Assembly (NCBI GenBank): GCA_965153355.1
Contig: OZ231126.1
Coordinates: forward strand, 7,626,001 to 7,690,000
Direction of reading: 5' to 3'
Source of the DNA: Flaccisagitta enflata
Lineage: Eukaryota
Length of the DNA: 64,000 nt
Position 1 is the first letter of the stretch. Each line of letters opens with the position of its first letter. Shown here piece after piece: positions 9,255 through 64,000 of the stretch. The translations under genes were made by a program, and so were the position numbers. The notes beneath the pieces were generated by a model. The model was given only the letters and a program-made list of their open reading frames with translations, did not search any database and was not told the DNA's origin.

Positions 9255-9436
9255 ATGCTTGTACTCACTTGTATGGTGTGTGAGTTTGATACATTCAAGA
9301 TGCTTGTAAGTTACTGGCACTCACTTGTATGGTGTGTGAGTTGGATACCATTCAAGATGCTTGTAAGTTACTGGCACTCACTTGTATGGTGTGTGAGTTT
9401 GATACATTCAAGATGCTAGTAAGTTATGGCACTCAC
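9255..9436 (-). repeat. Donor-junction echo of exon 42, 3 copies of ~57 bp
   Basis: Repeats of cactcacttgtatggtgtgtgagt. Confidence 0.9.
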
Positions 9437-9540
9437 TTGTATGGTGTGTGAGTCGGATGCTTGACCGAGTATCTCCAAAAGAGTTGGATCCGAAACGAAA
9501 AAGAAACGAGGAAAGAGAAGTCGTTTCTTCTCCAGATATC
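9437..9540 (-). CDS. DNAH5: Dynein HC exon 42 (last exon in window)
   Basis: [34 protein letters not shown]|gtgagt; 104 nt. Confidence 0.93.
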
Positions 9541-63847: not shown

Positions 63848-64000
63848 CTGAAACAAAGGAACAGTCAATTAGAGCAAGAGTAATCAGCCGTCTCCAGCAT
63901 CCGCCATCCGAAACGTCTCCAGCGTCCCCCATCTGAAACAAAGGAACAGTCATTTAAAAGAAAAGAGTCGTCGGCCGTCTTCAGCGCCCGTGTCAATCAT

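Follow-up and report, generated by a model that had tools for sequence, protein, structure and literature searches.

When part of an exon recurs many times in the intron beside it, are the copies the remainder of scattered duplications, or does tandem duplication favour the exon/intron boundary itself? This question is raised by a stretch of 64,000 nucleotides (nt) from Flaccisagitta enflata (GenBank assembly GCA_965153355.1, contig OZ231126.1, positions 7,626,001 to 7,690,000), here called the window, whose minus strand encodes the N-terminal part of a dynein heavy chain. A first-pass annotation had described tandem copies of splice junctions beside most exons of this gene, and had proposed a recurrent, junction-focused duplication process that inflates the introns with decoy splice sites. 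Within the gene the duplications are indeed junction-focused and strongly non-random. The arrays are probably minisatellites of the 'mirage' type described in lancelets, which arose many separate times in one functional dynein gene, grew or decayed, and were tolerated.

The dynein gene and its junction echoes

The window is microsatellite-rich DNA of about 40% G+C. Searched by tblastn with a 1669-residue gastropod dynein fragment (P0003), it gave matches that follow one another co-linearly on the minus strand between about position 63800 and position 13087. Splice sites were then refined by AG/GT borders and reading frame, and the borders of the remaining 3' exons and of exon 1 were read directly from the sequence. 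The refined model has 42 exons, the same count and numbering as in the first-pass annotation. All 42 are preceded by AG and followed by GT, and joined they make 5310 nt, or 1770 codons, that start with ATG and contain no stop. At exons 3/4 and 22/23 poor sequence conservation leaves the borders less certain. Among solved structures the best match of exon 34 is human DNAH5 (8j07, E = 1.4e-25), which makes the predicted product an outer-arm axonemal dynein heavy chain, DNAH5-like. The gene extends past the window, with its N-terminal 38% or so inside. A protein search with exon 15 found relatives at no more than 78% identity and no close named one, a search with exon 17 among longer proteins gave no match, and a protein atlas returned nothing beyond the family name.

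We define an echo as a copy, in the adjoining intron, of a unit made of an exon edge and the neighbouring intron. Tandem Repeats Finder (TRF) reported many arrays with long units within the gene, and in tblastn the 3' or 5' third of several exons recurred beside the exon (residues 702-723 about 30 times, residues 344-365 six times, and residues 137-164 eleven times). In the edge test, 45 exon-only nucleotides from each exon edge were aligned locally with the adjoining intron, together with 60 shuffles of each query. As the queries contained exon letters only, flanking microsatellites could not contribute. The test flagged 28 of the 84 edges and the alignments were then inspected. The exon 24 donor was dropped, its 30-nt match ending short of the junction and lying beside exon 25. 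The exon 13 donor was added from a blastn alignment of 150 nt at 69% identity.

The final set again comprises 28 of 84 edges, on 25 of the 42 exons. Eighteen are of the donor type (exons 2, 4, 5, 7, 8, 9, 13, 15, 17, 18, 21, 23, 27, 29, 31, 36, 38, and 42) and ten of the acceptor type (exons 1, 2, 8, 9, 11, 26, 28, 33, 35, and 40), with exons 2, 8, and 9 carrying both. The earlier estimate of at least 25 echo-bearing exons thus stands. Of the 28 individual junctions it had named, 26 were recovered (16 of 17 donors and 10 of 11 acceptors), but two were not. The exon 22 donor is a mere GA-rich, low-complexity chance match. The exon 41 acceptor scored 12.5, equal to the shuffle maximum, and its plausible ...ttttcag^GTGGTGGCG context (a caret marks the exon/intron boundary) is suggestive without being significant. 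The donor echoes of exons 15 and 38 are additions to the earlier list.

Echo units measure 56-230 nt (median about 104). At exon 36 there is in addition a segmental duplication of 1.8 kb, in which the final 84 nt of the exon, the donor, and both short copies that follow it recur. The number of copies per junction ranges from one decayed copy to the 50 echo units of exon 17, where TRF counts 54 periods. Arrays account for 18,838 of about 49,275 intron bases (38%), so the claim of intron inflation is borne out. Among the 40 exons examined for it, none has a full-length second copy, as the first-pass annotation had also reported. It also remarked that the intact exon always stands at the end of the array; this holds too, but is no extra observation: when a segment straddling a single junction is duplicated in tandem, the first copy (donor) or last copy (acceptor) stays continuous with the rest of the exon, and the outcome is automatic.

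Junction enrichment

To measure the bias, exon edges were compared with several controls. Pairing each edge with the wrong intron, donor edges with the upstream and acceptor edges with the downstream one, gave no positive in 80 comparisons. Queries from exon interiors were positive in two of 38 cases, both from long echo units. Of 300 random intronic 45-mers, drawn from outside arrays and microsatellites, 15 had a local copy, and most of these 15 lay in low-complexity repeats of 10-15-mers or in dispersed elements. Against this intronic background the exon edges (27 of 82) are enriched with an odds ratio of 9.3 (Fisher's test, P = 1.5e-10).

The arrays themselves point the same way. TRF lists 23 loci with a period of at least 40 in the gene, of which 20 are junction-derived. 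Sixteen overlap an exon edge directly and four more are homologous to one: both arrays of exon 9 (donor and acceptor), the decayed tail of the exon 4 array, and the distant portion of the acceptor array of exon 2. The other three are intron-only, of low complexity, and built of short sub-repeats. Merged, the 23 loci amount to 18 distinct junction arrays and three others. The 9.25 kb of the window outside the dynein gene contain no array with a period of at least 40 by TRF.

Could selection alone leave such a pattern? If tandem duplications fell uniformly and those within exons or of whole exons were purged, the remainder would look junction-focused. This account predicts the observed absence of whole-exon and exon-internal duplication, and junction-straddling duplications are silent by construction. 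We therefore collapsed the arrays and placed units of the observed lengths at random among tolerated positions, that is, intron-only or across one junction. Only 10-25% of such placements (units of 56-184 nt) include a junction, so 3.5 of 21 arrays would be expected to do so versus the 18 of 21 observed (binomial test, P = 8e-12). Nor does a uniform process fit the gap between intronic 45-mers and exon edges, or the position of the junction within the unit described below. The selection filter is thus already disfavoured within the dynein gene and we regard it as very unlikely to be the whole explanation.

Table 1. Echo arrays of the dynein gene and comparable metagenome repeats. Positions are those of the window unless a contig is named; a caret marks the exon/intron boundary.
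Feature	Position	Strand	Description	Evidence
Dynein exons 1-42	9437-63847	-	N-terminal 1770 codons	tblastn to P0003; AG/GT borders; open joined frame
Exon 1 acceptor echo	63889-63953	-	copy of ...tgactgttcctttgtttcag^ATGG.GGACGC and a second exon-start copy	read directly; edge score 30 versus shuffle maximum 13.5
Exon 2 acceptor array	62653-63700	-	units of ~160-167 nt (ATTC microsatellite + intron end + AG + 67 nt exon); AG in 4/5 echoes	TRF, unit table
Exon 2 donor echoes	62255-62517	-	102-nt unit, 2 copies, GT 2/2	
Exon 4 donor array	58557-59968	-	103-nt unit (98 nt exon + GTATG); 12 near-full echoes and decayed 54-nt tail; GT 14/15	
Exon 5 donor array	56520-57372	-	112-nt unit, 7 echoes, GT 7/7	
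Exon 7 donor echo	55246-55284	-	one diverged copy, end ...CAG^GT	
Exon 8 acceptor echo	54780-54866	-	52 nt exon, ~90%, after ...tctacag	
Exon 8 donor echo	54195-54416	-	old, 70% identity	
Exon 9 acceptor array	52391-54200	-	units of ~145 nt (ATTC microsatellite + intron end + AG + 60 nt exon); 11 echoes, AG 11/11	tblastn copies of residues 344-365
Exon 9 donor echoes	52010-52206	-	108-nt unit, 2 copies, GT kept	
Exon 11 acceptor echo	51021-51104	-	83-nt unit, 1 copy, AG kept	
Exon 13 donor echo	46746-46892	-	old, 69% identity, GT kept	
Exon 15 donor echo	44703-44774	-	old, ~72% identity, end ...ACAG^GT	
Exon 17 donor array	37965-44089	-	114-nt unit (68 nt exon + 46 nt intron); 50 echoes, GT 50/50; ~1158-nt higher-order repeat	
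Exon 18 donor array	36538-37141	-	184-nt unit with TC/GA microsatellite; 3 echoes, GT 3/3	
Exon 21 donor echo	35545-35620	-	...TTCTTCAG^GTAATTGAAC, one copy	
Exon 23 donor echo	32424-32723	-	152-nt unit, 1 full and 1 cut copy	
Exon 26 acceptor array	31348-31672	-	82-nt unit (32 nt intron + 50 nt exon); 4 echoes, AG 4/4	
Exon 27 donor array	30014-30712	-	56-nt unit (40 nt exon + 16 nt intron); 12 site-aligned echoes: GT 10, GC 2	
Exon 28 acceptor echo	29914-29986	-	73 nt, ~88%, AG kept	
Exon 29 donor array	28421-28689	-	88-nt unit (75 nt exon + 13 nt intron); 3 echoes, 2 at 100% identity	
Exon 31 donor array	25650-26358	-	64-nt unit (58 nt exon + 6 nt intron), 128-nt alternating pattern; 11 echoes, GT 11/11	
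Exon 33 acceptor echo	24943-25083	-	141-nt unit, 1 copy	
Exon 35 acceptor echoes	18505-18724	-	75-nt unit, 3 copies, AG kept	
Exon 36 donor echoes	15584-17610	-	two short diverged copies, then 1.8-kb segmental tandem duplication	
Exon 38 partial echo	13286-13337	-	52 nt, 80%, junction itself not retained	
Exon 40 acceptor array	11267-11621	-	96-nt unit (45 nt intron + 51 nt exon); 4 echoes, AG 4/4	
Exon 42 donor array	9263-9436	-	57-nt unit (18 nt exon + 39 nt intron); 3 echoes, each CAA^GTGAGT	
Metagenome donor-type echo	L001:969-1159		50-nt unit from ...CTG^GTGGGT	
Metagenome donor-type echo	L002:1401-1561		62-nt unit TGAGACAG^GTGGGT..., 2.6 copies, 100% identity, to contig end	
Metagenome donor-type echo	L003:3557-4037		exon 3' end + AAG^GTACAATA at 91%, ~354 nt downstream; second overlapping repeat offset by ~185 nt	

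Anatomy, growth and decay of the arrays

The exon part of a unit is 15-101 nt long (median 58). In 18 of 26 arrays the exon makes up 0.35-0.65 of the unit and the junction lies near the middle, versus 30% of arrays under a uniform model; the figures come from a table assembled by hand and are approximate. The exceptions are exons 4, 29, and 31, with only 5, 13, and 6 intron bases per unit, respectively. Identity between an echo and the authentic unit runs from 100% (exons 26, 29, and 36) down to about 70% (exons 8, 13, and 15), and therefore new arrays keep arising while old ones decay.

Many of these features also bear on whether the arrays are real. Errors in long-read assembly might have multiplied short segments next to exons, and the units that are 100% identical (those of exons 26, 29, and 36) would suit that idea. 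In most arrays, however, units differ by 2-30% and fall into structured subfamilies with decayed tails, which assemblers do not invent. Assembly error would also have no reason to pick out 28 splice junctions and to spare the wrong side every time. Similar donor echoes are present in three independently assembled metagenome contigs (L001-L003, Table 1), and a structure of this kind was verified experimentally in lancelet genes (PMC3087553, PMC3902484). We consider an artefact extremely unlikely.

Several arrays have higher-order periods (64/128, 56/108, 114/228/342, and about 1158 nt). The longest is found in the exon 17 array, where four near-identical blocks of about 1158 nt (window 37965-41890) each consist of ten 114-nt units and a diverged stretch; they are visible as open reading frames (ORFs) of equal length at 38009-39040, 39167-40198, and 40325-41356. 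These blocks are a second level of tandem duplication. In the exon 31 array, the one array in which inner-unit homogenisation was looked at, ...GACACGCTTAGATAC occurs in the authentic first unit and again in the last, whereas all ten units between them read ...GACACACTCAGATAC. Together the higher-order periods and the exon 31 units point to growth by unequal exchange or slippage. The exon 31 pattern (window 25650-26416) is as expected for growth from the middle of an array after the first duplication.

A microsatellite lies within the unit in six arrays, such as ATTC before the acceptors of exons 2 and 9 or GA after the exon 18 donor, and 12 arrays have none. At exons 2, 9, and 27 an (ATTC)n tract stops between a few bases and about 35 nt short of the acceptor (62653-62700, 52391-52440, and 30873-30990), and the (GA)n tract starts within the exon 18 donor itself, CAA^GTGAGAGAGAG... 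(37100-37141). Six arrays compared by eye, without quantification, had no consistent microhomology at the unit borders.

Did the arrays create introns or enlarge existing ones? The boundary between exons 17 and 18 (reference residues 723/724) is common to four metagenome loci (L010-L013), and therefore the arrays grew at existing introns. Intron creation by duplication of an exonic AGGT was considered and rejected: the units include non-coding intron sequence, and the exon 17/18 boundary, the only one compared, is shared with these loci.

Decoy sites and splice choice

Most echoes retain their splice-site dinucleotide. Among the aligned copies GT is present in 111 of 116 donors and AG in 28 of 29 acceptors, together 139 of 145, in agreement with the earlier statement that many copies keep a perfect site. 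About 120 of the 145 would be expected to do so if the dinucleotides diverged like the rest of the unit. The excess is weak evidence because units are copied from units and are not independent. Every echo of exons 18 and 42 has the same 9-nt donor core as the authentic site, as do six of the seven of exon 5 and 12 of those of exon 4. Of 21 arrays compared, only 12 have a splice-site core (9 or 13 nt) that has diverged less than the remainder of the unit.

These counts bear on the idea that the arrays were selected for a function, either as donor copies that bind U1 and shield long, AT-rich microsatellite introns from premature cleavage, or as exon-edge copies serving as enhancers or back-up sites. 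The kept dinucleotides, and the fact that no array is without any remaining site, agree with such a role. Set against that, the non-independence of copies weakens the excess, the wider core is not better kept than the unit in nine of 21 arrays, and acceptor-type arrays offer no U1 sites. Many echoes are single decayed copies that resemble neutral decay, and unit size and content differ at every junction. Selection for function is in our view unlikely.

How might splicing cope with so many decoys? Only the proximal sites give the open frame of the conserved protein. Use of an echo in place of the authentic site would cause a frameshift or stop at 114 of the 137 evaluated sites that keep GT or AG. 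The other 23 would insert an in-frame, stop-free segment, and 19 of these are in the 114-nt exon 17 array. Past exon 17 its reading frame runs on without a stop across about 20 echo units and reaches 837 codons altogether (window 41877-44390, minus strand), such that intron retention or a later donor would add in-frame repeats of 38 residues. Choice of the exon-proximal site by exon definition, as the first-pass annotation had suggested, is plausible from these reading frames.

Relation to known systems

Junction-spanning arrays of this sort were named mirages in lancelets, and the founding paper is reportedly that of Canestro et al. 2002. The phenomenon is thus known in kind, and the dynein gene is a new, extreme instance with a first test of enrichment. 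The novelty implied by the first-pass annotation does not stand, as junction-spanning tandem arrays have already been published for lancelet genes in PMC3087553 and PMC3902484. A full-text literature search met the term mirage in only two papers, and found no report at this density, no test of junction enrichment, and no gene- or genome-wide quantification.

Those two reports describe mirages in Adh3, troponin C, the globins BflGb6 and BflGb9, and PGBD5. They occur at both types of boundary, with units of 10-160 bp, 81-100% identity between units, and AG or GT in many though not all copies. Regular splicing was undisturbed by reverse transcription PCR, inner units were homogenised while edge units were not, and length polymorphism was shown (PMC3087553, PMC3902484). 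Their mechanism of origin is called 'unclear' and the phenomenon 'possibly ... more general' in cephalochordates in PMC3087553.

Compared with these descriptions, the dynein arrays, known from one assembled haplotype, agree in unit content, boundary types, AG/GT retention, and homogenised inner units. In both, the unit spans one intron/exon boundary (28 of 84 edges in the dynein gene), arrays occur at 5' as well as 3' boundaries (in the dynein gene 18 of the donor and 10 of the acceptor type), the dinucleotide persists in many but not all copies (139 of 145), and inner units are homogenised with the edge units left out (the exon 31 array alone was compared). The scale differs. Mirages in those accounts affect one or two junctions per gene with one to six copies, whereas the dynein gene has 28 affected junctions, up to about 50 copies, and 38% of its intron bases in arrays. 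Undisturbed splicing and length polymorphism are lancelet findings, while the dynein arrays are known from sequence alone. All the published cases in these reports have cephalochordate hosts.

A donor-type counterpart exists in human F7, where intron 7 has a 37-bp variable number tandem repeat whose first element spans the exon 7/intron 7 boundary. Its functional pseudo-donors are identical to the authentic donor and silent, the most upstream site being chosen (PMC1557585). The dynein donor arrays likewise have a first element across the boundary and, as at exons 18 and 42, pseudo-donors whose core is identical to the authentic one. In contrast, the F7 array is confined to one junction, similar arrays are rare in that genome, and there is neither an acceptor counterpart nor a sign of a recurrent process. 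In the Rogers model, as in ATP2A1, tandem duplication of an exon segment containing AGGT leads to intron gain with the protein unchanged (PMC3265369). Both cases involve short intragenic tandem duplication that makes duplicate splice signals and leaves the protein as it was. In ATP2A1, by that account, the duplication is within coding sequence and yields a new intron, whereas the dynein units hold sequence of a pre-existing one, and the introns beside them are old at least in part.

Proposed origin and tolerance of the arrays

The 1770 stop-free codons and the AG/GT at every border indicate that the dynein gene is functional. Decay of the gene, with arrays accumulating once splicing was no longer under selection, would fit the lack of any further dynein exon recognised by eye in the 9.4 kb past exon 42 and the XK-related ORF found there on the other strand. 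Against it stand the 42 exons with canonical borders, the open frame, and the identity to orthologues (34-95% per aligned segment, mostly 50-85%); such decay is a most improbable source of the arrays. Four metatranscriptome runs also contain a small share (0.08) of the words of a neighbouring stretch, but this carries no weight as evidence.

The mirage-type reading would have a short segment straddling one splice junction of a pre-existing intron duplicated in tandem, many times independently. The duplications would then expand, contract, and decay by unequal exchange or replication slippage. An echo would be tolerated as half an exon that lacks a partner splice site across the exon and so would not be defined as one. 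The authentic site, the first donor or last acceptor, would keep being used, and most stray uses of an echo would lead to a frameshift or premature stop, with nonsense-mediated decay removing the transcripts. Tolerance of this kind agrees with the undisturbed splicing of lancelet genes (PMC3087553, PMC3902484) and the silent pseudo-donors of F7 (PMC1557585).

Initiation itself appears to be centred on splice junctions, because the selection filter alone predicts far fewer junction arrays. Three causes may be proposed. Repair or recombination might start in the conserved exon and abort in the adjoining intron, where the haplotypes of a highly polymorphic genome would diverge; we favour this one, though only as a tentative guess. 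Replication might instead stall at co-transcriptional splicing complexes, or the arrays might bring a selective benefit. Two sets of DNA reads under the same organism label contain 0.66 and 0.33 of the 31-mers sampled from a neighbouring stretch, which fits either high polymorphism or incomplete coverage.

Several points weigh against a mirage-type origin through a junction-biased process. The cause proposed for the bias is a guess. There is no clear sign of selection either to keep or to disable the decoys. Nonsense-mediated decay cannot explain the tolerance of the 23 in-frame echo sites, and the use of proximal sites is read from the reading frame only. In this organism it is only the divergence of units that speaks for the reality and copy number of the arrays. 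Finally, a genome-wide process is an extrapolation from one gene.

Relatives in metagenomes and significance

In a metagenome scan 13 contigs encoded relatives of exon 15. All are at most 70% identical to it and therefore belong to other organisms. Six of the 13 have a local direct repeat of at least 40 nt, and in three of the six the repeat starts at the donor site (Table 1). The numbers are small and short-read contigs break at repeats, but the comparison suggests that the junction-echo structure may not be confined to one lineage.

It is conceivable, though we hold it as a doubtful extension, that splice junctions are hotspots of tandem duplication in this lineage, acting continuously and genome-wide within about 50 nt of the boundary, and not confined to lancelets, as the donor-type echoes on three contigs from other marine organisms would suggest. 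Such a hotspot process would seed a third of the junctions and build over a third of the intron DNA. It would then be a kind of genome instability, tied to junctions, that has so far gone unrecognised, and a main way in which introns grow and possibly also slide or are gained. Were the bias genome-wide, the introns of this animal would grow largely by copying their own borders, and some step of DNA repair, replication, or recombination would have to sense exon/intron boundaries in DNA. We know of no established mechanism that does so.

The arrays also amount to a natural experiment in splice choice, with up to 50 identical donors or 11 identical acceptors in a row of which one is correct. The dynein gene could thus serve, in an animal that is not a standard model, to examine exon definition, scanning in the 5'-to-3' direction, and the surveillance of transcripts by nonsense-mediated decay. 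Gene predictors and assemblies from short reads will go astray on arrays of this kind.

Other features of the window

Downstream of dynein exon 42, a reading by eye and without a profile recognised no further dynein exon in window positions 1-9436, with about 2800 codons outstanding. The intron after exon 42 may exceed 9 kb and have an XK-related gene inside it. The XK-related ORF (PF09815) has 585 codons at 4854-6611 on the plus strand, and its 3' part crosses a (CAT)144 microsatellite that is read as poly-Ile. Its closest matches, at 73% and 66% identity, are two unnamed proteins from metagenomes. Rfam and tRNA scans of the window were empty.

A dispersed repeat family with a (GTCC/GTCG)n core and conserved flanks is read as ...PSVRPSV... 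in the ORF lists. It occurs at 6488-6751, 10747-10870, 27459-27640, 45491-45549, 60644-60900, and other sites, in both orientations, in introns as well as outside the dynein gene. It is probably an element resembling a short interspersed element or a miniature inverted-repeat transposable element.

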